From a virus (lineage: Duplodnaviria > Heunggongvirae > Uroviricota > Caudoviricetes): a DNA stretch of 44,113 nt. Below are positions 1,637 to 25,507 of this stretch, in pieces. Both the position numbers and the translations under genes were made by a program. Positions within the stretch are counted from its first letter, which is position 1; each line of letters starts with the position of its first letter. Below the pieces are notes generated by a model, which was given only the letters and a program-made list of their open reading frames with translations, was not told where the DNA came from and did not search any database. The DNA is taken from the IMG/VR virus record IMGVR_UViG_2630968800_000004; one strand, written 5' to 3'.

Positions 1637-2163
1637 TATTAGCTCCTTCTGATGCCATTCTATTTCAGGAAGGAGTGTCCGTTAAACTCAGGCTACCTCA
1701 CTTATTCTAAGCAACCGGGTAGCATCATACGGGGCAATTATGGCCGCATTACCATACATGCAACTGTACATAGCTGATTACCTGGCTGACACCATGCATT
1801 TGTCAGCAGAGGAGCACGGCGCGTATTTGTTGCTGATGTTCAATTACTGGCAAACAGGAAAGCCAATACCCAAAAACAGGTTGGCAAAAATTGCCCGTCT
1901 GACTAACGAGCGATGGGTTGATGTTGAACCATCCTTGCGGGAGTTTTTTTGTGATAACGGCGACGAATGGATGCATCTTCGGATTGAGGAAGATCTGGCA
2001 TCTGTCAGAGAAAAATTAACCAAAAAATCAGCCGCAGGAAAAGCATCTGTTCAGGCCAGAAGAAGCAGAAAGGAAGCAGATGTTCAAACAAAACAAGAGA
2101 GAAATTTAACAGGTGTTCAAACAGATGTTGGAGTGGTGTTCGAACATGATGCTGGATTTGCCC

Positions 2164-3069
2164 TTATATTTCCAGACATCTGTTATCACTTAACCCATTA
2201 CAAGCCCGCTGCCGCAGATATTCCCGTGGCGAGCGATAACCCAGCGCACTATGCGGATGCCATTCGTTATAATGCTCGAACGCCTCTGCAAGGTTCTTTG
2301 CTGCCGTTAACCCGTCTGGTTTGGGCATGATACTGATGTAGTCACGCTTTATCGTTTTCACGAAGCTCTCTGCTATTCCGTTACTCTCCGGACTCCGCAC
2401 CGCCGTGTTCTTCGGTTCAAGTCCCAACATCCGGGCGAACTGGCGTGTTTCATTAGCCCGGTAGCATGAACCATTATCCGTCAGCCACTCCACTGGAGAC
2501 GACGGAAGATCGTTGCCGAAGCGGCGTTCCACCGCTCCCAGCATGACGTCCTGTACTGTTTCACTGTTGAAGCCGCCGGTAGTCCCCGCCCAGTGCAGTG
2601 CCTCACGATCACAGCAGTCCAGCGCGAACGTGACACGCAGTCTCTCTCCGTTATCACAGCAGAACTCGAACCCGTCAGAGCACCATCGCTGATTGCTTTC
2701 TTTCACGGCCACTCTGCCTGTATGTGCCCGTTTCGATGGCGGTACAGCAGGTTTTCGCTCAAGCAACAGCGCATTCTGGCGCATGAGCCGGTAAACACGT
2801 TTGGCATTGATCGCAGGCATACCATCAAGTTCTGCCTGTCTGCGAAGCAGCGCCCATACCCGACGATAACCATACGTGGGCAGCTCTCCGATAACATGGT
2901 GTATACGGAGAAGCACATCCGTATCATCAGTGTGACGACTGCGGCGGCCATCCATCCAGTCATCGGTTCGTCTGAGAATGACGTGCAACTGCGCACGCGA
3001 CACCCGGAGACAACGGCTGACTAAGCTTACTCCCCATCCCCGGGCAATAAGGGCGCGTGCGCTATCCAC
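2164..3069 (-). CDS. insD: IS2 InsD (orfB) transposase
   Basis: 301-aa [35 protein letters not shown]... Confidence 0.85.
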
Positions 3070-3392
3070 TTTTTTGCCCGTCCATATTCAACGGCTTCTT
3101 TGAGGAGTTCATTTTCCATCGTTTTCTTGCCGAGCAGGCGCTGGAGTTCTTTAATCTGCTTCATGGCGGCAGCAAGTTCAGAGGCAGGAACAACCTGTTC
3201 TCCGGCGGCCACAGCAGTAAGACTTCCTTCCTGGTATTGCTTACGCCAGAGAAATAACTGGCTGGCTGCTACACCATGTTGCCGGGCAACGAGGGAGACC
3301 GTCATCCCCGGTTCAAAGCTCTGCTGAACAATTGCGATCTTTTCCTGTGTGGTACGCCGTCTGCGTTTCTCCGGCCCTAAGACATCAATAAT
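3027..3392 (-). CDS. insC: IS2 InsC (orfA); canonical ATG is ATT in this copy (EQIIDVLG versus EQMIDVLG in copy 2)
   Basis: ORF 3027..3437 contains the InsC sequence [25 protein letters not shown]... Confidence 0.65.
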
Positions 3393-4230
3393 CTGTTCTC
3401 CAATGACAAGTCTAAAAACTGGTATTAAGACTATCACTTAAATAAGTGATACTGGTTGTCTGGAGATTCAGGGGGCCAGTCTAGATGCCAACACAAAGGC
3501 AACTAATAAAGATACAGATAAAGATCTAAAAACAGATCTAACCCATCCCAAACCCTTCCCTTCCGGAAGGGAGTTTCGGGATTTTGTGGCTGGAGTGCTT
3601 GAGGGGAGATTATCTGGCGGTACTGCAGCGGAATTTTGTAATTCTGCGGTGGTTGCGTTGCAGGCTGCTGGCCTGGATGTCTGTCGTGAGTATCCGGTGC
3701 CAGAGCGTGGTGACGGTTGCGGAGGGCGGATTGATATCGTCGTGACTGACAGGAACGGTGTCCGGTGTGGGATCGAGCTTGACCGAAATTCTCCGCGACA
3801 GAAATCACTGCTCAAAATCGGTGCTGTTGAAACCGGGATATGTGTCTTGCGGCGCAGTGATATCGCAAGGCACACCGAGCAGGGAATTCTGGTTATCGGT
3901 GGGGCTGTTCGCCAGAAAAAATTTGACCCGTTGTCAGTTGATCTGCCCGACTGGTTGTCAGAAACACTCTGGCATGAGTGGGTCCAGTTCAGGCAGGCAT
4001 TGCGAAAACCGATTCGAACGGAGCTGGGCGCTAACGGGGCGATACGGGAACTGGAAAAATTCCGTCAGCAGGGTTTTACACCTGAGCAGGTGATTCGACA
4101 CAGCATCGCCAATGAATACCAGGGTCTGTTCGCGCCGAAAGGTGTTCGGCCTGAGACGTTGCTCCGACAGGTTAACACCGTCTCGTTGCCGGACAGTGCG
4201 ATCCCGCCAGGCTTCAGGGGGTAACAGACC

Positions 4231-4977
4231 ATGAAAAATATTGCGACAGGAGGCGTTCTGGAGCGTATCCGCAGACTGACCCCACCACATGTAACCGCCC
4301 CATTCAGAACGGTTGCGGAGTGGCGCGAGTGGCAACTTGCTGAAGGCCAGAAACGTTGCGAGGAGATCAACCGCCTGAATCGTCAGTTGCGGGTGGAAAA
4401 AATCCTGAACCGCTCCGGCATCCAGCCGTTGCACCGGAAGTGTTCGCTTGCGAATTACCGGGCGCAGAACGACGGTCAGCGACATGCACTGAGTCAGGCG
4501 AAATCCATAGCTGACGAACTGATGACAGGCTGTACGAATTTTGTGTTCAGCGGTAAGCCCGGCACCGGAAAAAATCATCTTGCAGCCGCGATTGGCAACC
4601 GGCTGATGGCGAAGGGGCGTAGCGTGATTATCGTCACCGTGTCCGATGTCATGAGCGTGTTGCATGAGAGCTACGACAACGGCAAATCCGGTGAAAAATT
4701 TTTACAGGAGCTTTGTGGTGTTGACCTGCTGGTCCTGGATGAAATTGGCATGCAGCGGGATACGAAAAACGAGCAGGTGGTACTGAACCAGATTGTTGAT
4801 CGCCGGACGGCATCGTTACGCGGTGTGGGGATGCTGACAAATATTAACCATGCAGCGATGAATACACTTCTCGGCGAGCGGGTGATGGATCGCATGGTCA
4901 TGAACGGCGGGCGCTGGGTGAATTTTAACTGGGAGAGCTGGCGTCCGAATGTTAGCCATTCGAGGGTTGTTAAGTAG
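4231..4977 (+). CDS. DnaC/IstB-like AAA+ helicase loader (phage replication protein)
   Basis: Walker A GKPGTGKNHLAAAIG, Walker B LLVLDEIG; GGGGG RBS upstream; follows the replication-initiator-like gene. Confidence 0.8.
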   Translation: MKNIATGGVLERIRRLTPPHVTAPFRTVAEWREWQLAEGQKRCEEINRLNRQLRVEKILNRSGIQPLHRKCSLANYRAQNDGQRHALSQAKSIADELMTGCTNFVFSGKPGTGKNHLAAAIGNRLMAKGRSVIIVTVSDVMSVLHESYDNGKSGEKFLQELCGVDLLVLDEIGMQRDTKNEQVVLNQIVDRRTASLRGVGMLTNINHAAMNTLLGERVMDRMVMNGGRWVNFNWESWRPNVSHSRVVK

Positions 4978-9466: not shown

Positions 9467-10066
9467 ATGGCGCATATACAACTGGTCAAACAAACCTCTT
9501 CCGGATTACTTCTCCCGGCGACGCCGGAGAGTTGCGATTTTTTGCATCAAATCAAAATAGGTGAGTGGATACACGCAGACTTTAAGCGTGTGCGTAACTA
9601 CGCATTCCACAAGCGTTTTTTCAAACTCCTGCAACTGGGATTTGATTACTGGACTCCGGTCGGTGGGGCGATCACGCCTCGCGAACGAAAACTGGTATCA
9701 GGCTTCGTTGATTACCTGTGCGAATCAGTAGGTCGGGAACACACTCCAGCCCTGAGTGATGCCGCAGAGCAATACCTTAATACAGTTGCGACATGCAGAA
9801 CCCGGGATACGGCATTGCTAAAGTCGTTTGACGCTTTCCGCGAGTGGGTAACCATTCAGGCCGGATTTTACACCGAGCATATTTATCCTGATGGTAGTCG
9901 TGGGCGCAGGGCAAAATCTATCGCATTTGCGAACATGGACGAAACCGAGTTTCAGCAGGTTTATAAATCTGTACTGAATGTGCTGTGGAACTGGATCCTG
10001 TTCCGTAAATTTTCCTCTCCGGAGGAAGTCGAAAATGTGGCCGCGCAGTTACTGGAGTTTGCGTAA
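9467..10066 (+). CDS. Lambdoid nin-region protein, uncharacterised
   Basis: 199-aa ORF upstream of YbcO-like and Q-like genes. Confidence 0.45.
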   Translation: MAHIQLVKQTSSGLLLPATPESCDFLHQIKIGEWIHADFKRVRNYAFHKRFFKLLQLGFDYWTPVGGAITPRERKLVSGFVDYLCESVGREHTPALSDAAEQYLNTVATCRTRDTALLKSFDAFREWVTIQAGFYTEHIYPDGSRGRRAKSIAFANMDETEFQQVYKSVLNVLWNWILFRKFSSPEEVENVAAQLLEFA

Positions 10067-10356
10067 TGGTGGATTTACGTAAAGCGGCGCGGGGGCAGAT
10101 GTGCACCGTCAGAATTCCTGGCTACTGCAATCACAATCCCGAAACTTCTGTGCTGGCGCATTACAGGCTGGCGGGGACGTGCGGAACAGCGACAAAACCA
10201 CACGATATGCAGGCAGCGATTGCCTGTAGCTCATGCCACGATTTAATCGACGGGCGGGTAAAAACCAGCGATTACACCAAAGAAGAATTACGCCTGATGC
10301 ATGCAGAAGGTGTTTTTCGCACACAAGAAATCTGGAGAAAGGAAGGTTATTTATGA
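10066..10356 (+). CDS. YbcO-like small nin-region protein (putative nuclease family)
   Basis: 96-aa cysteine-rich ORF (CTVRIPGYCNHNPETSVLAHY...CSSCHDLIDGR); overlaps neighbours. Confidence 0.45.
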   Translation: MVDLRKAARGQMCTVRIPGYCNHNPETSVLAHYRLAGTCGTATKPHDMQAAIACSSCHDLIDGRVKTSDYTKEELRLMHAEGVFRTQEIWRKEGYL

Positions 10357-10907
10357 TTTACCCAACAAATACAGGCAAAAGCGGGGAACACCTTCGTCTC
10401 ACCACGCTGGAAAGTGTCTGGATTCAGGGAAAACTGCGCATGTGGGGGCGCTGGTCGTATATTGGCGGCGGTAAGACGGGAAATATGTTTAACCAGTTGC
10501 TGGCATCCAAAAAATTGACGAAAACAGCCGTCAATGAAGCCCTGCGCAGGATGAAAAAAGCGGGAATAGAGAAACCTGAGCTGGAAGCGTTTTTGCGAGA
10601 GATGATCAATGGCAAGCAAAAGACCTGGCTGGCGCATTGTACTGATGCAGAGGCGTTATGTATTGATAGAGTCATAAGTGAGGTGCTGGCAGAGCATCCT
10701 GGATTGATTAGTGTCCTCCGGCAACGGTATGAAGGGCGGGGGATGACTAAGCGTAAAATGGCTGAATTGCTGAATGACGCACACCCTGAGTGGTGTTTCC
10801 GGACGTGCTGCAGTCGGGTAGATGTATGGCTAAATCTTGCTGAATATATGCTCTATCTACCGATGCGTGATGCATTCTCTTCCGGGGATCTAAAAACCGT
10901 TTGTTGA
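10353..10907 (+). CDS. Putative late-gene antiterminator Q-like protein (uncertain)
   Basis: 184-aa ORF with AGGAAGG RBS, immediately followed by a late-promoter-like element and terminator. Confidence 0.4.
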   Translation: MIYPTNTGKSGEHLRLTTLESVWIQGKLRMWGRWSYIGGGKTGNMFNQLLASKKLTKTAVNEALRRMKKAGIEKPELEAFLREMINGKQKTWLAHCTDAEALCIDRVISEVLAEHPGLISVLRQRYEGRGMTKRKMAELLNDAHPEWCFRTCCSRVDVWLNLAEYMLYLPMRDAFSSGDLKTVC

Positions 10908-10933
10908 CTCAATCTGTTATCCGGGGCTATATT
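10904..10933 (+). promoter_or_regulatory. PR'-like sigma70 promoter (TTGACT-18-TATATT) overlapping the Q-like stop codon
   Basis: -35 and -10 hexamers read directly from sequence; position typical of lambdoid late promoters. Confidence 0.35.
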
Positions 10934-10996
10934 CCTCACGCGCCAGCAAAATCTGGCGTCGGGATTGGCGTCCCGGATGTTTACGGAGCGATATGA

Positions 10997-11016
10997 GACG
11001 CGCCCGCGTCTTTTTT
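10997..11016 (+). terminator. Intrinsic terminator (tR'-like)
   Basis: GACGCG-ccc-GCGTC stem followed by TTTTTT. Confidence 0.4.
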
Positions 11017-11294
11017 CATATCGTTTGCACAGTCACATTCGCGATTTATGGCGGGCTGTGTGGGGGAGCCGAAAGGCTCGCCGGTTTCCGTACCCGGTTA
11101 CGCCAACCCTGCACAGTTCGCCACCAGTTCGATTGGCGTCGTCGGTGGCGATAATTTCCAAATGTACGGAGTTATCGTTATGACCACTCAAATCTCTGTT
11201 GAAACTCTCTCCCCGATCACCCATAACCAGTGAGGTAGCCTGAGTTTAACGGACACTCCTTCCTGAAATAGAATGGCATCAGAAGGAGCTAATA

Positions 11295-11597
11295 ATGAGC
11301 AGAAAAACCCAACGTTACTCTAAAGAGTTCAAAGCCGAAGCTGTCAGAACGGTTCTTGAAAATCAACTTTCGATCAGTGAAGGCGCTTCCCGATTATCCC
11401 TTCCTGAAGGCACTTTAGGACAATGGGTTACCGCCGCCAGAAAAGGGCTCGGTACTCCTGGTTCCCGCACGGTGGCTGAACTGGAATCTGAAATTCTGCA
11501 ACTGCGTAAGGCGTTAAATGAAGCTCGCCTTGAGCGAGATATATTAAAAAAAGCAACAGCGTATTTTGCACAGGAGTCGCTGAAAAATACGCGTTAA
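11295..11597 (+). CDS. IS600 OrfA
   Basis: 100-aa ORF identical in family to other copies. Confidence 0.85.
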   Translation: MSRKTQRYSKEFKAEAVRTVLENQLSISEGASRLSLPEGTLGQWVTAARKGLGTPGSRTVAELESEILQLRKALNEARLERDILKKATAYFAQESLKNTR

Positions 11598-11632
11598 TCG
11601 AACAATGGCGACAACAATTTCCCATTGAAGCG

Positions 11633-12451
11633 ATGTGTCAGGTATTTGGTGTATCCAGGAGCGGTTATTACAACTGGGTACAGCATGAACCCTCAGACAG
11701 AAAACAAAGTGATGAGCGGCTAAAACTGGAGATTAAGGTGGCACATATCCGCACTCGCGAAACATATGGAACCCGGCGGCTCCAGACGGAGCTGGCAGAG
11801 AATGGCATCATCGTTGGTCGTGACCGACTGGCACGTCTTCGTAAGGAGCTGAGGCTACGCTGTAAGCAGAAACGCAAGTTCAGAGCGACTACGAACCCGA
11901 ACCACAATCTGCCAGTTGCGCCAAATCTGCTGAACCAGACGTTCGCTCCTACAGCACCAAATCAGGTCTGGGTGGCGGACCTGACGTATGTTGCCACACA
12001 GGAGGGATGGTTGTACCTCGCTGGCATCAAAGATGTTTATACGTGTGAAATTGTCGGCTACGCCATGGGAGAGCGCATGACAAAAGAGCTGACAGGTAAA
12101 GCCCTGTTTATGGCGCTCAGGAGCCAGCGCCCACCTGCCGGGCTAATCCACCACTCTGATCGAGGTTCACAGTACTGCGCATACGATTACCGGGTCATAC
12201 AGGAGCAGTCTGGTCTGAAAACATCAATGTCGCGTAAAGGTAACTGTTACGACAACGCTCCGATGGAAAGCTTCTGGGGAACGCTGAAAAATGAGAGCCT
12301 GAGCCACTATCGTTTTAATAACCGGGATGAAGCCATCTCAGTAATACGGGAATACATTGAGATTTTCTACAATCGTCAGCGTCGTCACTCTCGTCTGGGG
12401 AATATCTCCCCGGCAGCCTTCAGGGAAAAATATCATCAGATGGCTGCTTAA
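11633..12451 (+). CDS. IS600 OrfB
   Basis: 272-aa ORF. Confidence 0.85.
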   Translation: MCQVFGVSRSGYYNWVQHEPSDRKQSDERLKLEIKVAHIRTRETYGTRRLQTELAENGIIVGRDRLARLRKELRLRCKQKRKFRATTNPNHNLPVAPNLLNQTFAPTAPNQVWVADLTYVATQEGWLYLAGIKDVYTCEIVGYAMGERMTKELTGKALFMALRSQRPPAGLIHHSDRGSQYCAYDYRVIQEQSGLKTSMSRKGNCYDNAPMESFWGTLKNESLSHYRFNNRDEAISVIREYIEIFYNRQRRHSRLGNISPAAFREKYHQMAA

Positions 12452-13212: not shown

Positions 13213-13289
13213 GGCCCTTTAGCTCAGTTGGTCAGAGCGAGCGACTCATAATCGCCAGGTCGCTGGTTCAAGTCCAGCAAGGGCCACCA
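13213..13289 (+). tRNA. tRNA with CAU anticodon, Ile2 (lysidine-type, ileX/ileZ-like) or Met
   Basis: Manual cloverleaf: acceptor GGCCCTT/AAGGGCC, anticodon loop CTCATAA, T-loop GGTTCAAGTCC, 3' CCA. Confidence 0.7.
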
Positions 13290-13290
13290 A

Positions 13291-13367
13291 CCACCACTAG
13301 CTCATCCGGATAGAGCATCAACCTTCTAAGTTGACGGTGCGAGGTTCGAGTCCTCGGTGGTGGGCCA
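13291..13367 (+). tRNA. tRNA-Arg (UCU)
   Basis: Acceptor CCACCAC/GTGGTGG, anticodon loop CTTCTAA, T-loop GGTTCGAGTCC, 3' GCCA. Confidence 0.7.
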
Positions 13368-13369
13368 GC

Positions 13370-13445
<76 letters not shown>

Positions 13446-13448
13446 TAT

Positions 13449-13523
<75 letters not shown>

Positions 13524-13637
13524 TGACCTTTCTTAAAGTACTCCAACCTACTGAATCCTAAGGGATACGGCTTTAAGCCTCCTTGCAGAGTTACTTACTG
13601 TAACCCACTGTGTAACCCTCTCAGGGCATGCAGACAT

Positions 13638-15242
13638 ATGATTCAGCTATCCAGTAGTCACAAACTTCCAGCAGTCTACTATCTCTACCAGCGTAACGGC
13701 GTCTACTACTTCCGTCTTAGGGTCAGACAATCAAACAATGATAGAATGACCTCAATATCATTACGGACCAAGGATAGACGCACCGCTATGGCTTACTCAA
13801 GGCACATAAAGGCAGCACTCAAGGCAATACACGCAGACAGACCCAACGCTACCTATGAGGAAATGAGGGAACACCTTAAGGACATCGCTGAGTGTGAACT
13901 GTCTATGGGCCGTTCAGATCTCTTTGAGCCTGACATGAGGGATATCTACCGGGACCAATACGGAGAACTTGGTGAGAGCCTTACCGATGCTCTGGCTAGT
14001 GAGCCGCTAAGCATTGACCAGCATCGTTACATCAATGAGGCCCTGAAGGTGCTAAAAGCCTGTATGAGGCGTATCGAAGCGGGAGACAGTCAGCTTCTGA
14101 TAGATTACGTCGATCTTTTTAATGATATTGATAGGCAAGATAACCAAGCAGACTCTGTGTCCCTATCTGTTAATGCTCCAGAAGTAAAACCAGAAGTTAC
14201 GCCTAGCATTACCATAGCGAGCCTCTTTGAGCAATACGAAGCGGAGAACTATCAGAACTGGAAGCCTGCAACCTTAAGGGAAAACAAGGCGTCACACGCT
14301 GCGTTAATCGAAATATTCGACCATCTGGGTCTCAATGCAGACGCTAACAGGGCTGACATGCTTAGGGTCCGTGATGTGCTCCAGCAGTTACCTAGGAACC
14401 GTAAGCAGCGCTTCAAGGATGTCCCACTTGCTGACCTGTTGAGCCGTGAAGATAAGACAGATTGTCTGGATGTCGTTACCATCAACAACAAGTATCTTAT
14501 TAAGATGGCTGCTGTCTTTAGGTGGGCTGTGCGCAATGACTTGATTAAAAAGAACATGACTGAGGGTCTGGAGCTTAAAGTCCCTCAGCGTAAAGCCTCA
14601 GGGGCCCGTAACGCCTTCTCTACGGAGCAGGTGGGGCAACTACTGGTCGCAGCTAAGGCATACTCTCAGAAGACCTCTGGTAAGCCGTATCATTATTATG
14701 TTACCGCCTTGGCTGCTATCACTGGGGCGAGACTCAATGAAATAGCCCAACTACAGGTCAAAGACGTCAGGACCACTGAGGCGGGAACCGTTTATATTCA
14801 TATCAATGAAGACGATAGTAGTCTACCCGGTAAGAGCATCAAGAACGCTCATAGTGACCGCTGTGTGCCTCTGGTCGATGGGGCCTATGGTTTTATATTG
14901 GCTGACTTTATGGCGCTTGTAGAGACCCGTAGAGGCGCTGACGGTGATGACGCTATGGTGTTCGATGGTCTGCGTCTCATGAAGAACGGTTACGGTGAGC
15001 AGGTGAGTAAATGGTTTAATCGGACGTTGTTGCCTAAAGTCCTCGTAGACCGTAGCGGCTTAGCGTTTCACTCGTTTAGACATACAGTTGCGGCCCAGTT
15101 AAAACAACATGGGGTCGAGTTGGCGTATGCACAGGCGATCATGGGGCATAGTTCAGGGTCTATTACGTACGACCGTTATGCTAAAGAGGTCGAGGTTGAT
15201 AGGCTGGTCAATGTGATGGCTGATGTTTATAAGGAGACCTAG
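13638..15242 (+). CDS. Tyrosine site-specific integrase (534 aa) immediately downstream of tRNA-Gly
   Basis: C-terminal catalytic signature LAFHSFRHTVAAQL...IMGHSSGSITYDRY; N-terminal YYFR-type motif; same orientation as the tRNA array. Confidence 0.85.
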   Translation: MIQLSSSHKLPAVYYLYQRNGVYYFRLRVRQSNNDRMTSISLRTKDRRTAMAYSRHIKAALKAIHADRPNATYEEMREHLKDIAECELSMGRSDLFEPDMRDIYRDQYGELGESLTDALASEPLSIDQHRYINEALKVLKACMRRIEAGDSQLLIDYVDLFNDIDRQDNQADSVSLSVNAPEVKPEVTPSITIASLFEQYEAENYQNWKPATLRENKASHAALIEIFDHLGLNADANRADMLRVRDVLQQLPRNRKQRFKDVPLADLLSREDKTDCLDVVTINNKYLIKMAAVFRWAVRNDLIKKNMTEGLELKVPQRKASGARNAFSTEQVGQLLVAAKAYSQKTSGKPYHYYVTALAAITGARLNEIAQLQVKDVRTTEAGTVYIHINEDDSSLPGKSIKNAHSDRCVPLVDGAYGFILADFMALVETRRGADGDDAMVFDGLRLMKNGYGEQVSKWFNRTLLPKVLVDRSGLAFHSFRHTVAAQLKQHGVELAYAQAIMGHSSGSITYDRYAKEVEVDRLVNVMADVYKET

Positions 15243-15330
15243 AGGAGACCATAGTCTAGGATGACACTTACTACAGACCTGTGTGGTCATGTTTTTGACT
15301 CATAGTTTTCTCTACTTGTCAAGGGATAAT

Positions 15331-15353
15331 TAATACGACTCACTATAGGGAGA
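15331..15353 (+). promoter_or_regulatory. Exact phage T7 RNA polymerase promoter consensus (TAATACGACTCACTATAGGGAGA), copy 1
   Basis: 23/23 match to the T7 class III promoter -17 to +6; predicted +1 G at 15348. Confidence 0.85.
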
Positions 15354-15450
15354 AGGACACAAAAAGTTTTCTCTTCTAGGATGACACTTACTACAGACCT
15401 GTGCGGTCATGTTTTTGACTCATAGTTTTCTCTGCTTGTCAAGGGGTAAT

Positions 15451-15473
15451 TAATACGACTCACTATAGGGAGA
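15451..15473 (+). promoter_or_regulatory. Exact phage T7 RNA polymerase promoter consensus, copy 2
   Basis: 23/23 match; predicted +1 at 15468. Confidence 0.85.
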
Positions 15474-15570
15474 AGGGACACAAAAAGTTTTCTCTTCTAG
15501 GATGACACTTACTACAGACCTGTGTGGTCATGTTTTTGACTCATGGTTTTCTCTACTTGTCAAGGATAAT

Positions 15571-15593
15571 TAATACGACTCACTATAGGGAGA
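15571..15593 (+). promoter_or_regulatory. Exact phage T7 RNA polymerase promoter consensus, copy 3
   Basis: 23/23 match; predicted +1 at 15588. Confidence 0.85.
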
Positions 15594-15779
15594 AGGGACA
15601 CAAAAAGTTTTCTCTTCTAGGACAACTAACCGTAACTTATCGCATCCTTTCAGGGGCGGGATGACCAATTACAGACACCAAGCGTTCTACTTAAAGTGAA
15701 TGCTTCCTGTGTGCTCTGGGTCAGTCGATAAGTGAATAGCAATAAGACACAATCATCTTAATTATGGTCTCTAGTCCCT

Positions 15780-15960
15780 ACAGGGGCTTAACTTAAAGTT
15801 AACTTAAAGACACAATTAAAGATTAACTTATAGTATTACTTAAAGTTAACTTAAAGACACAATTAGAGATTAACTTTAAGTATTAAATAAAAGATTTAAT
15901 TAAAGACCAATTAAAGATTAACTCTAAGGGAATACCTTAAGGGGTGATGATATTTATAAT
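15780..15960 (+). repeat. AT-rich iteron block with two ~50-bp direct repeats built on TTAAAG cores
   Basis: AACTTAAAGTTAACTTAAAGACACAATTAAAGATTAACTT occurs twice (about 15796 and 15846) plus further TTAAAG motifs. Confidence 0.6.
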
Positions 15961-16062
15961 AATCAATCACCAAACCTATAGGTCTTCTCTTGAAGTGGCA
16001 CACTGAATTTGGCCACCTGAACAGAGGTGATATGCTCACCTCAGAACAACACAGGTGCTCCA

Positions 16063-17231
<1,169 letters not shown>

Positions 17232-17239
17232 CCACTTCA

Positions 17240-17320
17240 GTTGAAATTGCTGAGCTGACAGGCAAGGAGCACCGAAATGTCCTTCGTGATATTCGTAAGA
17301 TGCTCGAAGAACTTAACGCG
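17240..17320 (+). other. 81-bp fragment encoding a Rha-like phage regulatory protein N-terminus, trapped between IS911 and IS1
   Basis: Translates to VEIAELTGKEHRNVLRDIRKMLEELNA, similar to the Rha-like gene at 35521-35856. Confidence 0.35.
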
Positions 17321-17375
17321 GGTAATGCTGCCAACTTACTGATTTAGTGTATGATGGTGATTTTAAGGTGCTTGC

Positions 17376-17651
17376 GTGGCTTCCATTTCCATCAGATGTC
17401 CTTCCTGCTCCGCTACTGAAGGCGTGGTGCGTAACGGCAAAAGCACTGCCGGACATCAGCGCTATCTCTGCTCTCATTGCCGTAAAACATGGCAACTACA
17501 GTTCACTTACACCGCCTCTCAGCCCGGTACGCACCAGAAAATCATTGATATGGCCATGAATGGCGTCGGATGTCGTGCCAGTGCACGCATTATGGGCGTT
17601 GGCCTCAACACGGTTTTACGTCACTTAAAAAACTCAGGCCGCAGTCGGTAA
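17376..17651 (+). CDS. insA: IS1 InsA
   Basis: 91-aa ORF. Confidence 0.85.
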
Positions 17652-18073
17652 CCTCGCGCATACAACCGGGCAGTGATGTGATTGTCTGCGCTGAAATGGA
17701 CGAACATTGGGGCTACGTCGGTGCTAAATCACGTCAGCGCTGGCTGTTTTACGCGTATGACAGGATACGGAGGACGGTTGTGGCGCACGTCTTCGGTGAA
17801 CGCACTCTGGCCACACTGGAGCGTCTTCTGAGCCTGCTGTCGGCCTTTGAGGTCGTGGTATGGATGACGGATGGCTGTCCGCTGTATGAATCACGCCTGA
17901 AGGGAAAGCTGCACGTTATCAGCAAGCGTTACACTCAGCGCATTGAGCGACATAATCTGAATCTGAGACAACATCTGGCAAGGCTGGTACGGAAGTCACT
18001 GTCGTTCTCAAAATCGGTGGAGCTGCATGACAAGGTCATCGGGCATTATCTGAACATAAAACACTATCAGTAA
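17570..18073 (+). CDS. insB: IS1 InsB frame
   Basis: 167-aa ORF. Confidence 0.8.
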
Positions 18074-18088
18074 GTTGGAGTCATTACC

Positions 18089-19037
18089 AAAAAAAGCAAC
18101 AGCGTATTTTGCACAGGAGTCGCTGAAAAATACGCGTTAATCGAACAATGGCGACAACAATTTCCCATTGAAGCGATGTGTCAGGTATTTGGTGTATCCA
18201 GGAGCGGTTATTACAACTGGGTACAGCATGAACCCTCAGACAGAAAACAAAGTGATGAGCGGCTAAAACCGGAGATTAAGGTGGCACATATCCGCACTCG
18301 CGAAACATATGGAACCCGGCGGCTCCAGACGGAGCTGGCAGAGAATGGCATCATCGTTGGTCGTGACCGACTGGCACGTCTTCGTAAGGAGCTGAGGCTG
18401 CGCTGTAAGCAGAAACGCAAGTTCAGAGCGACTACGAACCCGAACCACAATCTGCCAGTTGCGCCAAATCTGCTGAACCAGACGTTCGCTCCTACAGCAC
18501 CAAATCAGGTCTGGGTGGCGGACCTGACGTATGTTGCCACACAGGAGGGATGGTTGTACCTCGCTGGCATCAAAGATGTTTATACGTGTGAAATTGTCGG
18601 CTACGCCATGGGAGAGCGCATGACAAAAGAGCTGACAGGTAAAGCCCTGTTTATGGCGCTCAGGAGCCAGCGCCCACCTGCCGGGCTAATCCACCACTCT
18701 GATCGAGGTTCACAGTACTGCGCATACGATTACCGGGTCATACAGGAGCAGTCTGGTCTGAAAACATCAATGTCGCGTAAAGGTAACTGTTACGACAACG
18801 CTCCGATGGAAAGCTTCTGGGGAACGCTGAAAAATGAGAGCCTGAGCCACTATCGTTTTAATAACCGGGATGAAGCCATCTCAGTAATACGGGAATACAT
18901 TGAGATTTTCTACAATCGTCAGCGTCGTCACTCTCGTCTGGGGAATATCTCCCCGGCAGCCTTCAGGGAAAAATATCATCAGATGACTGCTTAAAAAAAG
19001 AACAAATGGTAGTGTCCGCTATTGCCAGTACACCTCA
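18089..19037 (+). mobile_element. IS600, 5'-truncated (3' 949 bp only; first ~315 bp missing at the IS1 junction)
   Basis: Sequence begins inside the orfA 3' end (A-run) and runs to the normal right terminus ...CCAGTACACCTCA. Confidence 0.85.
18176..18994 (+). CDS. IS600 OrfB
   Basis: 272-aa ORF. Confidence 0.8.
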   Translation: MCQVFGVSRSGYYNWVQHEPSDRKQSDERLKPEIKVAHIRTRETYGTRRLQTELAENGIIVGRDRLARLRKELRLRCKQKRKFRATTNPNHNLPVAPNLLNQTFAPTAPNQVWVADLTYVATQEGWLYLAGIKDVYTCEIVGYAMGERMTKELTGKALFMALRSQRPPAGLIHHSDRGSQYCAYDYRVIQEQSGLKTSMSRKGNCYDNAPMESFWGTLKNESLSHYRFNNRDEAISVIREYIEIFYNRQRRHSRLGNISPAAFREKYHQMTA

Positions 19038-19411
19038 GTAATCCATCCAGGCCTGTTGTTGCAGAGCTTGGCGATGATTCAGGCTGGCATTTTTTCAGCC
19101 AGAGAAACCCGGATAACAGCATAGTGTTCACTGTTAACGGACAGGTAATTCCGTTAAATTACGGAAACTTCGATGCCCGCTATAAATATCGAACAGAGGG
19201 GGTACAGGATGTACGGTATGGCCATGAAATGTATTACAGCCCCGGCAGTAACACCGTTTCGTGGAGATTTTGCGCACCTTCGGGACACGGGCTGTCAGGG
19301 ATGGCGATATCGGATACCGGCCGTAACTCAGCGGATAACGTTGACGGTGTGTATTACCGACCACTGCAAAAACTGATTAATGGCACCTGGTATAACGTAG
19401 CGAGTATTTAA
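19038..19411 (+). pseudogene. Side tail-fibre C-terminal fragment (5' part removed at the IS600 junction)
   Basis: ...VAELGDDSGWHFFSQRNPDNSIVFTVNGQ...[21 protein letters not shown], typical tail-fibre C-terminus. Confidence 0.55.
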
Positions 19412-19413
19412 CA

Positions 19414-19958
19414 ATGTTGCATTTAAAAAATATTACTACGGGTAATCCGAAAACAGCAGAACAATATCAGATGACAAAACGATATTCGGTCACCTGGCTT
19501 TTTTCAGAAGACGGAAAAAACTGGTATGAAGAGCTGAAGAATTTCGCCAGGACACAATTAAAATAACTTACACCGGAGACGGTCGCGTGGTGTGGGTCGG
19601 TAAGGATGTGACAGGCATCGAGCCACGCAATGCCAGCGTTATCGAAGTTCCGGATATTACCGCTAACCGCCGCATTACCGCGCCGGGTTACTGGTTTTAC
19701 CGCAATGATGAATTTGTCTTTGACTACAGACTCAAAGCGGAAGATGAGCGTGATGCCCTTCTGGCTCAGGTCAGTGCCCGGACAGGGGAATGGGAAGAAG
19801 ACCTGCTGCTGGGGTTAATCAGCGACGAAGATAAAGAAAAGCTGAAAGCCTGTCGTATTTACGCGAAATCGCTGCAGGCGATGGATTTCAGCACCATCAC
19901 TGATAAATCCTCATACAACGCCATTGAATGGCCCGCCTCTCCGGAAGGTTCTTCCTGA
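19414..19958 (+). pseudogene. Tail-fibre assembly protein (Tfa-like), interrupted by stop/frameshift
   Basis: [40 protein letters not shown]... ends at TAA 19564; the remainder (19587-19958) is in another frame. Confidence 0.55.
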
Positions 19959-19981
19959 TTTAATTTATCGCGAGAAAAACA

Positions 19982-21271
19982 ATGTCTGTAGTGATATCAG
20001 GTGCGCTGACTGATGGCGCAGGTATCCCCATGTCCGGATACCATATTATTCTGAAATCCCGGGTAAACCCCCCGGAAGTGGTGATGAACACTGTTGCTGA
20101 TGTGATGACAGGAAACGATGGTGAATACTGTTTCCATGCGCGGACTGGAAAATATGGTGTGTATCTGAAACAGGACTGGCGCAACGAGTACAACGTTGGC
20201 GACATTGCTGTATATGAGGACTCAAAGCCCGGCACGCTGAATGACTTTCTGATTGCTCCTGATGAGGGCGACCTGAAACCGGATGTCGTCAAACGCTTTG
20301 AGGAAATGGTGGCGCAGGCGCAGCAGAGCGCCGGGGCCGCAGCCGGAAACGCACAGCAGACGGCGCAGGATGTGGCGGCAGCCGCAGGTTATGCCCGCGC
20401 AGCAGAGCAGGCCAAAAATGACATTGATGCTGCGCTGACCGGCACTCTGAAAACGGCTAACCATCTGTCTGAAATCGCAGCAGCAGGCGAAAAGGCACAA
20501 CAGAAGTCCCGGGATAATCTGGGGCTGAAAAGTGCGGCCACGATGGAAGCACAGAGCGACATTTACGACCGGACAAAAGGCCGTCTGGCGATACCCGGCG
20601 CATTCGGCTTTGGGTGTGCTTTTCTGCCTGAAGATGTTATCCGTTTTGACACTAAGAGTGATTTCCTGGCCTGGGTAAGGAATGCGCTGCCAGGTGAATA
20701 TTCCGTTGCTGGCCCCTACGGCATCATCATACCCGACACACGGTTTGAAGGGGTGCTCAGCATCCGGTGGACTGATGCACGCCCTGAGACAACAGAACCG
20801 CGGTACAGAGCCAAATCCCTTACTTTTTACGGCATTAACGGCCCCATTTATCACACCCGCTACTGCTACTGGCCCATATCCAGACTGACTGGCTGGGTGA
20901 AAATAAATATAACCACAGAAGATATTATTTACAGAATCGTGGCGAGCTCTGTCCGCAACAGATGGGGAGACCCTGACATTGGCGGGCTGATTATTGCTGC
21001 GTACCAGGGAGAAGCTGACGGTGATAAAGTCATCAGACTTGTCAGGGGGCAGTCATACAGAGGCTCACGACTGGGACCGGTGGGGATTTCAGTGCCCAGT
21101 ACTCCCACCGGAACGTATATAGTATCCCCACAATTTTTCATTACGGGATGTTCAGAGCATTCATTACCGGGGTCATATTGCGCCCTGTCCGGGGTGCCGG
21201 ATGCACATGTCTCTGGCGCAATGCCCGGGCTTTTTATTCGCACATCGAGAGGAATGCACCGTGGAAATTAA
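19982..21271 (+). CDS. Phage tail-fibre protein (429 aa)
   Basis: Ala/Gln-rich central segment, conserved C-terminal region duplicated at 37759-37947, followed by an assembly-like gene. Confidence 0.55.
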   Translation: MSVVISGALTDGAGIPMSGYHIILKSRVNPPEVVMNTVADVMTGNDGEYCFHARTGKYGVYLKQDWRNEYNVGDIAVYEDSKPGTLNDFLIAPDEGDLKPDVVKRFEEMVAQAQQSAGAAAGNAQQTAQDVAAAAGYARAAEQAKNDIDAALTGTLKTANHLSEIAAAGEKAQQKSRDNLGLKSAATMEAQSDIYDRTKGRLAIPGAFGFGCAFLPEDVIRFDTKSDFLAWVRNALPGEYSVAGPYGIIIPDTRFEGVLSIRWTDARPETTEPRYRAKSLTFYGINGPIYHTRYCYWPISRLTGWVKINITTEDIIYRIVASSVRNRWGDPDIGGLIIAAYQGEADGDKVIRLVRGQSYRGSRLGPVGISVPSTPTGTYIVSPQFFITGCSEHSLPGSYCALSGVPDAHVSGAMPGLFIRTSRGMHRGN

Positions 21272-22025: not shown

Positions 22026-22883
22026 CTAATTGGGTGATAACAGATCCTGTGTATGGGCGTTTCCCTTTGTGCGTGCGTTGATGCTGGTAACGGTAAACGT
22101 CATGATGAACACGACCGCGAATAAGACGACAATCGTCGGAGCTGGTGCGCTGTCGATAAAAAAGGACAGCCAGACACCAGTCATTGACACTATTACCGAT
22201 ATGCCAGTCGCCAGTAGGAGCGCAATATGAAAGCGTTGTGTCAGGAGTACTGCAATGGCGCCAGGCGCAATGAGCAGAGAAATAGAGAGAATGATACCTA
22301 CTGCTTTCAGCGTCGCCACAATGGTCAGGGAAACCATGCACAGCAGCCCATAATGCAGCCATCTCGTATGCAAACCGCTTACCTGCGCCTGTTGATAATC
22401 AAAGCTGAACAGCAAAAAATCCCGCCATTTTACGCTAATAACAAGTGTAACCAGCCCGGCAATAATCACCGTCTGGATTATGTCGCCGATGGTTATCCCG
22501 AGCATGTCGCCGAAAAGAATATGGTCAAGATGTACGTCTGGTTTAATTGCAATATACAAGATCAGACCTGCGGCAAACATGCCAGAAAAAACAATCCCCA
22601 TAACTGTATCTTGCTTGATTCGGCTGTTGTCTTTCAGGTATCCCGTCGCCACCGCGCAGAATACTCCGGCGACGAATGCCCCTGTAGCCAGAGGTAACCC
22701 CAGAATCCAGGTAAGCACGATGCCAGGAAAAACCGCATGACTCATCGCGTCACCCATCAGTGCCCAACCTTTCAGGACCAGAAAGACCGACAGCAGCGCA
22801 CAGGGTATGGAAACTACCAGTGAAATCAGCAGTGCGTGACTCATAAAGGTGAACTGCAGTGGCTCCAGTAATAATGCCATCAT
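22026..22883 (-). CDS. sitD: SitD, iron/manganese ABC transporter permease
   Basis: 285-aa polytopic membrane ORF, last gene of a four-gene ABC operon. Confidence 0.8.
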   Translation of the reverse strand: MMALLLEPLQFTFMSHALLISLVVSIPCALLSVFLVLKGWALMGDAMSHAVFPGIVLTWILGLPLATGAFVAGVFCAVATGYLKDNSRIKQDTVMGIVFSGMFAAGLILYIAIKPDVHLDHILFGDMLGITIGDIIQTVIIAGLVTLVISVKWRDFLLFSFDYQQAQVSGLHTRWLHYGLLCMVSLTIVATLKAVGIILSISLLIAPGAIAVLLTQRFHIALLLATGISVIVSMTGVWLSFFIDSAPAPTIVVLFAVVFIMTFTVTSINARTKGNAHTQDLLSPN

Positions 22884-23737
22884 GAGCGATCCTCCAGCGC
22901 TTTATGCGCACGCCGACGATTTGCCAAAAGTCCATGGGTGGGCGCAAATACAAATGCTAAAAGAAACAGCAGTGTCTGCGCCACCACGATGATTCCACCT
23001 GTCGCGCCGTCCAGAAAGTAACTGACCCACGCGCCGAGGAAACTGGTTACACTGCCAATAGTTACAGCAATTATGAGCAGGCGGGGAAAACGATCGGTTA
23101 ACAACCATGCTGTTGCACCGGGAGTCACCACCAGACAGATCACCAGAAAGGCACCAACCGTTTGCAGCGCCGCAACGGTCGAAACCGACAGCAGGGTGAA
23201 GAAGAGGATTTTTAATCTGCCCGGATGTAATCCAATAGCACGGGCGTGATTCTCGTCGAAAAAGGTCACCATAAGATCTTTCCATTTGAAAAAAAGCACG
23301 ATGATCGAGAGAATGCCAATGATAGTGAGTTGCAGGATATCCGCCGGATCGATTGCCAGAATATTGCCCAGGACGATGGTCTGAATGTTCACGGATGTCG
23401 GGTTCAATGACACCATAAACAGCCCCAGGCCAAAAAAGGACGAGAAGATCAGGCCGATGATGGCATCTTCTTTTAAGCGGGTGCGTTGGTTAAGAAACAG
23501 CATGCTGCCCGCTGCCAGTCCGCCGGAAAAGAAGGCTCCCAGAGAAAACGGAAGCCCCAGCATATATGCCCCCGCAACACCCGGGACAATAGAGTGCGAC
23601 AGCGCATCGCCAATCAGCGACCAGCCTTTTAGCATCAGATAGCATGACAGGAAAGCGCAGAGACCGCCGACCATTGCCGAGACCCACATCGCATTGAGCA
23701 TATATTCATAGCTGAAGGGTTCCAGTAGCACGTTCAT
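22880..23737 (-). CDS. sitC: SitC, iron/manganese ABC transporter permease
   Basis: 285-aa membrane ORF with overlapping start/stop. Confidence 0.8.
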
Positions 23738-24561
23738 CTTGCTTCCCTCTGCACCGCTGACGGTCGATGTGCCACAAAAGGGCGTTCATCGTCAGTAATA
23801 ATGCTTTCTTCCGAGCCGTTAAGTGTGACATGGCGCAGTACGCCGCTAAAAGCCAGCTCCAGGTTCTCGGCTGTAAAAGTGGTGTCTGTCGGCCCGCTTG
23901 CCAGGACGGTGCCTTTGACCATGACCGTATAATCGCAAAATGTCGTGACTGAGCCGAGATTGTGCGTTGAGACAAGCATCGTTTTGCCTTCCGCGCGTAA
24001 CTCCCTCAACAGGCTGATGATTTTCGCTTCGGTTTTCACATCAACGCCGGTAAAAGGTTCATCCAGCAGGATCACATCACCCTGCTGTGCAATTGCTCTC
24101 GCCAGAAAGACGCGTTTCTTTTGTCCACCGGAAAGCTCGCCGATTTGACGATGGCGAAAATCCACCATATCGACACGTTCCAGCGCATCGGTGACAATCT
24201 GACGATCCCTCTTTTTGGCTATACGCAACATACCCATATGCCCATAGCGGCCCATCATCACCACATCTTCCACCAGTACAGGAAATGACCAGTCAACCTC
24301 TTCTGACTGAGGGACGTAGGCAACCAGGTTTTTCTGTAGCGCCTGTCGCGTGGGAATACCCAGAACAGATATCTTTCCGCTGGTCAGACGCACAAATCCC
24401 ATAATCGCTTTAAACAACGTCGATTTTCCGGAACCGTTTACCCCAACCAGAGCGGCAATAGATCCACTTGGTACTGTGAAGGATGCATCGCGCAGTGCTG
24501 TGTGCCCGTTACGCCAGGTGACAGTAACATCATTAACGACAATGCCTGCAGATTGCATCAT
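23734..24561 (-). CDS. sitB: SitB, ABC transporter ATP-binding protein
   Basis: Walker [13 protein letters not shown] signature LSGGQKKR, Walker B ILLDEP. Confidence 0.85.
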
Positions 24562-25475
24562 TATTTCTCCCTTTTCCCGGCTTTAATTCCCTGTACCAGC
24601 GTACTGGTAGTAACCTTAAGAAGGTCGATATACGTAGGTACCGGGCCGTTTTCTGTGCTCAGGGAATCGACATAGAGCACACCGCCGTAGTGTGCGCCGG
24701 TTTCACGCGCAACCTGACGCGCTGGTTTATCGGAAATCGTACTCTCGCTAAAGACTGCCGGGATATGATTTTTCTTAACTATATCAACAACCTTACGTAC
24801 CTGCTGCGGTGTTCCTTGTTGATCGGCATTAATCGGCCACAGATAAAGCTCTTTTAGCCCCAAATCGCGTGCGAGATAAGAAAAAGCCCCTTCACTGGTG
24901 ACCATCCATCGCTGATTCTCAGGGAGTTCCGTAATCTGCTTACGCAGGGGGGCAAGGGTTTGGGTAATCTTGGCTTTATAAGTATCGGCATTACGTTGGT
25001 AGGTTTGTGCATTTGCCGGATCGTATTTTATCAACGCATCACGAATATTATCGACGTAAATCAGAGCATTATCTGGCGACATCCATGCATGGGGATTAGG
25101 TTTGCCCTCATAGGGTCCTTCGGTGATCCCTACTGGCGTCACACCCGAAGAGACAATTACTTCTGGAACCCCATTGAGATGCTGGTAAAAGCGTTGGAAC
25201 CACAATTCCAGATTCATACCATTGGCGAGAATCAGTTGTGCCCCCTGCGCACGTTTAATATCGCCAGGGGTAGGCTGATACTCATGAATTTCTGCACCAG
25301 GCTTGGTTATGGATGAGACTTCTGCAGCATCTCCAGCCACGTTTTTGGCCATATCCGCGATGATGGTAAATGTTGTAATGACCTTGAATTTTTCAGTTGC
25401 ACTTGCCTGAAATGCGATCGAGCAGGTGAGGGCGAGGCACCCCAAGAGCATGGTTACTTTTTTTATTGAGTGCAT
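24561..25475 (-). CDS. sitA: SitA, periplasmic metal-binding protein
   Basis: Signal peptide plus TroA/ZnuA-like solute-binding ORF (304 aa). Confidence 0.8.
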
Positions 25476-25507
25476 AATTTAGTACCTATAGTGAGCAAAA
25501 TTAGAAC

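Follow-up and report, generated by a model that had tools for sequence, protein, structure and literature searches.

The 44,113-nucleotide viral sequence analyzed here (IMG/VR record IMGVR_UViG_2630968800_000004, hereafter the window) contains the left 2.5 kb, comprising attL, an integrase gene, and a control region, of a small island of the "tandem T7-like promoter" group that integrates at tRNA-Gly. We consider it likely that islands of this type are satellite-type elements triggered by the RNA polymerase (RNAP) of T7-group phages, acting through the mechanism proposed below. This reading is supported because the promoters are conserved, because their specificities vary and match the phages of the host in Klebsiella, and because the islands carry origin-like iterons and signals resembling the T7 concatemer junction.

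An earlier note on this DNA, made from its letters alone, had described three tandem repeats with exact T7 promoters, AT-rich TTAAAG iterons, a 534-amino acid tyrosine integrase beside a tRNA gene and about 14 bp before the repeats, a cut by IS911 at 15991, and a lack of T7-like genes; all of these features were recovered in our analysis. The T7 class III promoter 23-mer (TAATACGACTCACTATAGGGAGA) occurs with 0 mismatches on the plus strand at positions 15331, 15451, and 15571 (15331–15353, 15451–15473, and 15571–15593), once per full unit of a tandem repeat at 15255–15622 (plus strand), and all three copies point rightward. Tandem Repeats Finder describes this repeat with a period of 120 (units of 120–121 bp), 3.1 copies, 96% matches, and a score of 694. 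No further match to the 23-mer with three or fewer mismatches was found in the window, and there were none in 100 dinucleotide-preserving shuffles; the exact promoters are far beyond chance. A T7-core-like 9-mer on the minus strand at 25505 was dismissed as a chance match, as ~0.3 are expected in the window. At sister loci the promoter unit is present in one, two, or three copies. In an alignment of ten T7-type units drawn from five loci, 1 of the 23 columns of the 23-mer is variable versus 48 of 100 columns in the flanks, and the corresponding p value of ~4e-5 is indicative only, since the units are not independent and their 5' edge aligns poorly.

The promoters are followed by a promoter-proximal leader block of ~58 nt at 15627–15684 (plus strand; TAACCGTAACTTATCGCATCCTTTCAGGGGCGGGATGACCA...ACAGAC). 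Across nine islands, which represent at least seven genera, nearly every column of this block is identical, also where its flanks can no longer be aligned. It has no counterpart in the phage records and no credible Rfam family, with only a sub-threshold microRNA match, and the fold of the leader RNA is unremarkable (z = -1.4). Farther downstream, at 15780–15960 (plus strand), lies a block of AT-rich TTAACTTAAAG-type iterons with a GC content of 23.8% against 49.0% for the whole window, in which Tandem Repeats Finder detects arrays with periods of 11, 23, and 47 at 15788–15923. T7 primase-type sites on the minus strand of the block were tallied alongside GC content. The iterons align to the AT-rich DNA downstream of T7 phiOL, to the AT-rich region of the primary origin, and to the short-repeat array at the T7 left end, with Smith-Waterman scores of 34–38 compared to shuffle means of 17–20 (standard deviation ~3). 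The primary origin of T7 consists of the tandem promoters phi1.1A and phi1.1B and then AT-rich DNA. The window likewise has tandem rightward T7 promoters aimed into AT-rich DNA with similar motifs, but here a conserved spacer of ~190 bp separates the promoters from the AT-rich block. We therefore describe the iterons as a putative T7-type, transcription-activated replication origin. The block ends with an imperfect palindrome, GGTGATGATATTTATAATAATCAATCACC (15943–15971, no strand assigned), which was read from the sequence and is kept in the islands of Klebsiella and E. coli 52148. The order of promoters, leader, iterons, and palindrome is preserved in islands of at least seven genera, and no excess of host-type signals, namely sigma70 promoters or terminators, was found in the cassette.

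Relatives of the integrase with 65–87% protein identity were found at 20 loci in at least 15 genera of Enterobacterales: Klebsiella, Pectobacterium, Morganella, Proteus, Citrobacter, Enterobacter, Buttiauxella, Kluyvera, Serratia, Rouxiella, Lonsdalea, Shimwellia, Edaphovirga, E. coli, and Shigella. The majority of them are at tRNA-Gly(ccc), and the islands that could be delimited are 4.1–6.4 kb long and flanked by 17–23-bp repeats of the tRNA-Gly 3' end. Within E. coli, the cassette is present on the chromosome of 91 of 5,426 complete genomes and never on a plasmid, the att arms of the island are present in 372 of the same genomes, and the island is positioned between the glyU tRNA-Gly gene and the ETT2 region. 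Cassette matches appeared at two places per genome; this most likely reflects the effect of the tandem repeat on the joining of matches and not a second locus. When compared by blastn with 50,697 phage records, the cassette gave promoter-sized matches only.

An intact example is the 4,276-bp element of E. coli FT130 (locus L002), which is enclosed by two copies of the tRNA 3' end (23 bp). It is arranged as integrase, arrays of 10–13-bp repeats, two T7 promoters, a leader and iterons like those in the window, and more arrays, after which the right part carries a KilA-N gene and a small membrane open reading frame (ORF). The arrays (19771–20000 and 20600–20760 of L002) contain ~14 copies of GATGACCATAGGC as well as CTATGTGGTC, CTGTATGGCC, and AATCAATACGA units, and FT130-type islands also have a degenerate phi1.1A-like sequence, AATCAATACGACTTACTAATAGGAGACA. 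Of such short-repeat arrays, the window has only a vestige, at positions 15243–15260.

Most of the 20 loci have one to four plus-strand promoters of the form N(8-10)CACTATAGGGAGA, in which the specificity region is variable. They lie ~60–1,460 bp past the integrase stop codon, mostly at 300–1,260 bp. In K. pneumoniae ATCC 13883 and in E. coli 52148, one island combines two K11-type promoters (one an exact AATTAGGGCACACTATAGGGAGA, the other with one mismatch), one T7-type promoter, and one promoter of a third type, which suggests that islands with three specificities may respond to several phage polymerases. Promoters of all three specificities lie at L006 8429–9006 and at L007 9262–9838, and the third type is AATTAGGTAGCACTATAGGGAGA. 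The K11-type promoter matches 371 Klebsiella phage records of ~40 kb, mostly with 9–10 sites each among the matches listed. Read from the sequences, the islands differ in promoter specificity, and in Klebsiella, the single case tested, it fits the phages of the host. A second group of islands (L003 and L014–L021) has other promoter classes, such as CTATCACTATAGGGAGA.

The islands also resemble T7 in the signals that mark its concatemer junction. Inside the integrase gene of the window, at 14153–14172 (plus strand), CTCTGTGTCCCTATCTGTTA matches T7 nt 149–168 at 20 of 20 positions, and this part of T7 spans the right edge of its 160-bp terminal repeat. The 20-mer is found in 619 T7-like phage records at 637 places, nearly always once per genome (362 records from Klebsiella, 134 from Escherichia, then Salmonella, Yersinia, Dickeya, and others). 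Among the matches listed, it is mostly near the left end of the phage genome and under the terminal repeat where one is annotated. As a control, a query of about the same length taken from the second group of islands returned only seven unrelated matches at noise level. Among the islands, six have an exact CTCTGTGTCCCTATCTGTTA at the same place in the integrase gene, those of Klebsiella, Pectobacterium, and RIT691 included, and a further nine have a near-exact copy; the integrase linker in which it sits is otherwise rich in insertions and deletions. It contains the core T-ATCTGTT of the T7 RNAP class II pause/termination signal (TATCTGTT) on the same strand as the promoters, so that the window has the class II pause signal that in T7 packaging substrates marks the right boundary of the terminal repeat. 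The motif HATCTGTT occurs once on the plus strand of every T7/K11-type island and once on the plus strand of T7, at nt 160. Recognition of the class II signal is required in T7 concatemer processing. The signal is strictly sequence-specific, and its sole natural example is the T7 concatemer junction (bioRxiv 10.1101/2021.01.11.426313 and 10.64898/2026.02.12.705533). The second island group has CCGTCCGTCTCCCTATCTGTAT at the junction position, at an integrase offset of ~500 nt, and this variant reads ATCTGTA, not ATCTGTT.

The opposite boundary of the T7 terminal repeat has a counterpart in intact relatives and is missing from the window. In FT130-type islands, a 69-nt stretch ~270 bp before attR (L002 21985–22053) aligns to T7 39743–39810, where the unique right-end DNA of the phage meets the start of its terminal repeat, with a score of 44 compared to a shuffle mean of 16.3 (standard deviation 2.3, maximum 27). 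Its core, AAAAATCTGAG, recurs in exact or near-exact form at the corresponding place in six further islands; the loci with the terminal-repeat-start mimic at this position are L001, L006, L007, L010, L015, L016, and L024. Coverage of the mimic query reached 80% or more in 70 phage records; those among the matches listed are T7/T3-like, and several of these matches are at the right-end repeat. In the circular or concatemeric form of an island, the two mimics would flank attP and enclose 916–957 bp with conserved spacing, and together they would constitute a pseudo-terminal repeat of ~0.92 kb downstream of the promoters that point rightward. The comparisons with T7 gave no extended similarity other than the promoters, the junction 20-mer, and the mimic of the terminal-repeat start, and no equivalent of PacB, the gp18 recognition site, was identified in them.

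Plasmids that carry the T7 ori, pac, and terminal repeat are replicated, packaged, and transduced by T7 (PMC13236587 and PMC9860248; Chung & Hinkle 1990 cited therein). The island has a class II pause signal identical to that of the T7 concatemer junction, and its relatives have the terminal-repeat-start mimic, but the T7 terminal repeat itself is absent and would be replaced by the 0.92-kb segment that spans attP. The earlier note had proposed a T7-RNAP-dependent origin or packaging-type cassette on an integrative element, a candidate satellite or infection-triggered element that is inert without a T7-type polymerase. Comparison of the islands supports this proposal, except that the packaging-type signals are outside the interval 15256–15960 to which it was applied; one is in the integrase gene at 14153–14172, and the other is in the right arm, which has been lost here.

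The genes carried by relatives fall on both sides of the promoters. In many of them, a DUF4145 gene lies directly next to the integrase gene or overlaps it and is a full-length match to PADLOC PD-T7-4 (E 8e-99), for example at L006 7790–8422 and L003 15896–16549, with others at L007, L012, L014–L016, and L027. Vassallo et al. 2022 (PMC9519451) state that PD-T7-4 "often overlaps an integrase gene," with which the island arrangement agrees. It has since been renamed RAZR and is described by Zhang et al. 2026 (PMC13017515) as an abortive-infection HEPN RNase that is activated by T7/T3 portal rings. Term searches of PMC9519451 and PMC13017515 brought up no link between RAZR and these islands or native T7 promoters. 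The island family seems to be the native home of RAZR, although the window and the FT130 subtype do not have it; in the window, the integrase gene is followed directly by the promoter repeat with no ZFD-DUF4145 (HEPN) gene. The phage promoters do not drive RAZR, since it is encoded upstream of them.

Downstream of the promoters, the cargo of relatives comprises a protein of the Rha/KilA-N/Bro/Ant type, a small ORF, a coiled-coil DUF6971 protein, and a conserved product of ~375 amino acids that belongs to no Pfam or PHROG family. For the KilA-N protein, PADLOC gave a weak match to PD-T4-2_B (E 4e-5). An AlphaFold model of the 375-amino acid protein was obtained with moderate confidence (pLDDT 63, pTM 0.65) and has 84 matches in BFVD at E ≤ 1e-3; within the best 50 of these 84, the named ones are almost all capsid or head proteins. 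The model points, with moderate confidence, to an HK97 capsid-like fold. This protein is found in the 6.4-kb relatives only, and the coiled-coil DUF6971 protein that precedes it could be a candidate scaffold. In L006, the capsid-like gene is at 10875–12002 and the DUF6971 gene at 10370–10780. No primase, replicase, or small terminase was found among the cargo clusters of the relatives, and no T7-like genes were recognized among their cargo.

We propose that an intact island would stay silent until infection by a T7-group phage brings a single-subunit RNAP into the cell. The phage enzyme would then fire the tandem promoters rightward, through the conserved leader and the AT-rich iterons, and this transcription would activate T7-style replication as it does at T7's own origin. 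The same transcripts would express the KilA-N/Rha/Bro-type DNA-binding protein and the small membrane protein and, in the 6.4-kb members, also the DUF6971 protein and the HK97-fold capsid-like protein. On a circular or concatemeric form, transcription would cross the terminal-repeat-start mimic, attP, and the first ~650 nt of the integrase gene before it meets the class II pause signal, which is the phage's mark for the end of the terminal repeat. With the two signals bounding the pseudo-terminal repeat, the helper terminase could process the DNA into units of ~5.2–7.3 kb. Transcription, replication, excision, packaging, and transfer of the island in vivo are all predictions made from sequence. 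A stronger proposition is that the islands are true satellites of virulent T7-group phages that differ from all characterized satellites, with helper sensing through cis promoters, a T7-style origin, a pseudo-terminal repeat, small HK97 capsids of their own in the 6.4-kb members, and RAZR. We regard this as quite possible and stop short of calling it probable.

Several observations weigh against the proposal. An exact 50-mer across the attP junction was not found in metagenome contigs or IMG/VR, a search of the 5,426 E. coli genomes with a synthetic attP revealed no attP junction, free circle, or tandem copy, and the cassette itself was not found in metagenome contigs. A Logan contig (L027; 6,635 bp) considered as a circular island was rejected as an integrated fragment, as its ends do not overlap and it adjoins an antitoxin gene of the chromosome. 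Three IMG/VR matches considered as free elements all proved to be the same integrated Shigella-type locus. Our literature searches found no report, experimental or otherwise, of a T7-dependent satellite. The proposal does not account for the trigger of excision, because the integrase gene lies upstream of the promoters, and an integrated element would have to survive the degradation of host DNA by T7. The islands do not encode a replication initiator, terminase, portal, or recognizable excisionase. The capsid-like assignment depends on a model of moderate confidence (pLDDT 63) with Foldseek TM-scores of 0.22–0.39, and the FT130/window subtype does not have the capsid gene at all. Islands of the other promoter classes do not have HATCTGTT, and a pairing of promoter class with junction class is unproven because their variant, CCGTCCGTCTCCCTATCTGTAT, matches no T7-like or other phage in the database. 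Furthermore, the linker motif in the integrase gene also encodes a conserved Ser-Leu-Ser-Val, so that protein constraint adds to its conservation.

The chief alternative is a pure infection-triggered defense island, in which the promoters would serve as a sensor for toxic or anti-phage effectors and the island would spread by other means, with neither replication by phage enzymes nor transfer in particles. Such a role is suggested by the many members that carry RAZR/PD-T7-4, a proven abortive-infection system against T7 and T3 (PMC13017515), by the weak resemblance of the KilA-N protein to PD-T4-2_B, by an FT130/window subtype that encodes only the KilA-N protein and a small membrane ORF, and by the failure to find a free or packaged form in the public data searched. 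We nevertheless think it unlikely as a full account, since it leaves the origin-like iterons and the two junction mimics flanking attP unexplained, as well as an HK97-fold protein preceded by a coiled-coil protein, and since RAZR is upstream of the promoters that would have to drive it. Defense and satellite lifestyles are also compatible and not mutually exclusive. A simpler use of the promoters would be as a polymerase decoy that titrates T7 RNAP off the phage genome, for which tandem consensus class III promoters in one to three copies might seem suited. This is highly improbable: one to three promoters on the chromosome cannot compete with the phage promoters on many replicating genomes without amplification of the island, and such amplification is the satellite model, and a decoy would not explain the conserved downstream genes or the junction mimics.

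The short T7-identical sequences, namely the promoters, the junction 20-mer, and the origin-like DNA, could also be what is left of an integrated T7-like prophage or the scar of recombination with a T7-like phage. We consider this very unlikely, as complete elements are just 4.1–6.4 kb with intact att repeats, the similarity to phage DNA does not go beyond short signals, and no T7-like gene is recognized in the cargo of relatives. In the window, 13 T7 proteins (RNAP, DNA polymerase, primase, portal, capsid, terminase, and others) gave no tblastn match. Cloning-vector contamination or an assembly chimera, which the earlier note had named as a possible refutation, was suggested by the identity of the 23-mer with the standard laboratory T7 promoter and can be practically dismissed. 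The cassette shows natural variation and occupies the same chromosomal site in the 91 complete genomes of E. coli, which stem from a wide range of hosts and countries, independent Shigella-type assemblies contain it at 99.6–99.9% identity, and no vector backbone flanks it. The reading that remains best in accord with these observations is a satellite-type island triggered by phage RNAP.

This kind of island is not new, since enterobacterial genetic islands with tandem T7-like promoters were described in 2006 (Chen & Schneider, Nucleic Acids Res 2006;34:1133, PMC1380254), a match made by the title as it appears in reference lists. A review cites that paper regarding the sit island of Shigella and E. 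coli, the setting in which the window lies, and the window locus is probably among the islands of 2006. No follow-up of this island group was found among the citing papers that we located. The window agrees with the group in having at least two tandem T7-group promoters without a T7 RNAP homolog in the window, an Int-family integrase gene 5' of the promoters and beside a tRNA gene, and, in its relatives, small size and short terminal repeats. It differs in being truncated: only attL is present, whereas 11 relatives are compact islands with both attL and attR, and the phage-related genes 3' of the promoters, found in relatives, have been lost. The islands of 2006 reportedly numbered 12, with sizes of 4–13 kb, in nine enteropathogens, and are said to have had an upstream integrase and 17–24-bp terminal repeats and to have been put forward as possible satellite phages.

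To our knowledge, no characterized satellite family (P4-like, PICI, cf-PICI, PLE, or PICMI) depends on T7, the textbook virulent phage. Unlike these families, the island would be triggered by a helper RNAP acting on cis promoters and not by a protein anti-repressor, it has no replicase, primase, or small terminase, and a virulent podovirus of the T7 type would serve as its helper. In size, the elements also fall far below cf-PICIs, which are ~10–15 kb.

The window copy itself is almost certainly a truncated, non-mobile, dead remnant. Its attL core is the 3' end (13501–13523) of a tRNA-Gly(tcc) gene identified by ARAGORN at 13449–13523 (plus strand), the last of a prophage-borne cluster of Met, Arg, Thr, and Gly tRNA genes. 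Homology to the FT130 element begins directly after the tRNA, at 13524, with a left arm (13524–13637, plus strand) that is conserved with E. coli islands and leads to the integrase gene 114 bp downstream. The integrase ORF is intact (13638–15242, plus strand; 534 amino acids), with matches to Pfam Phage_integrase (E 2e-17) and the PHROG integrase family (E 2e-44) and a sub-threshold score for DUF6538 (25.2 bits, cut-off 27). Its stop codon is 13–14 bp from the promoter repeat. An IS911 at 15991–17239 (plus strand), with 99% identity to annotated IS911, cuts the island at 15990, and for this reason no second copy of the tRNA-Gly core, i.e., no attR, is found in the window. FT130 positions 1–2585 survive (13524–15989), and positions 2586–4277, which hold the KilA-N gene, membrane ORF, terminal-repeat-start mimic, and attR, are missing. 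With everything to the right of the iterons gone, the copy could at most be transcribed by T7 RNAP and could not move.

Self-BLAST places an IS1 copy at 17320–18088, downstream of IS911, and directly after it a partial IS600-type (IS3-family) copy at 18089–19039. Independent Shigella-type assemblies in IMG/VR have the same locus at 99.6–99.9% identity, and a sister lineage there has a single promoter unit and no IS911. Compared with 17234–17320 of the window, sister assemblies (L029 2538–2975 and L031 4036–4471) keep an additional ~437 bp of island DNA between the site of IS911 and the IS1 copy, and the window lineage has an extra deletion next to IS911. E. coli EPSSH018 (L003) has a related but different island variant in the equivalent prophage tRNA-Gly.

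The target tRNA-Gly(tcc) is within the prophage tRNA cluster (13213–13523) and is not the chromosomal glyU. Upstream of the cluster are DUF1367, DUF1364, and DUF1133 (Q-like) genes at 9467–10907, and the context is a decayed lambdoid prophage with DUF1367, DUF1133/Q-like, and tail-fiber genes. The window also contains sitABCD-like ABC transporter ORFs at 22026–25475 (minus strand), an IpaH-type NEL E3 ligase gene at 38680–40395 (minus strand), and a 1.3-kb duplication (2151–3484 and 33982–35315). Among its insertion sequences, IS1 is represented at least four times, with one copy more divergent at ~98%, and the IS600 type (IS3 family) by five to six copies. Because of the sitABCD-like ORFs, the IpaH-type ligase, and the many insertion sequence copies, the window looks like a heavily rearranged Shigella-type chromosome or prophage region.

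As a fossil truncated by an insertion sequence in a Shigella-type sit/prophage region, the window copy is of low significance in itself, and it serves mainly as a marker and as a pointer to the family. The islands appear to copy DNA-maturation signals of their helper, and the frequency of RAZR/PD-T7-4 among them places that defense system in a phage-parasite context. If the proposal is true, a T7-dependent satellite would exist in E. coli, Shigella, and Klebsiella, including the type strain K. pneumoniae ATCC 13883, and it would represent a new kind of satellite trigger, in which the helper's RNA polymerase recognizes promoters in cis.

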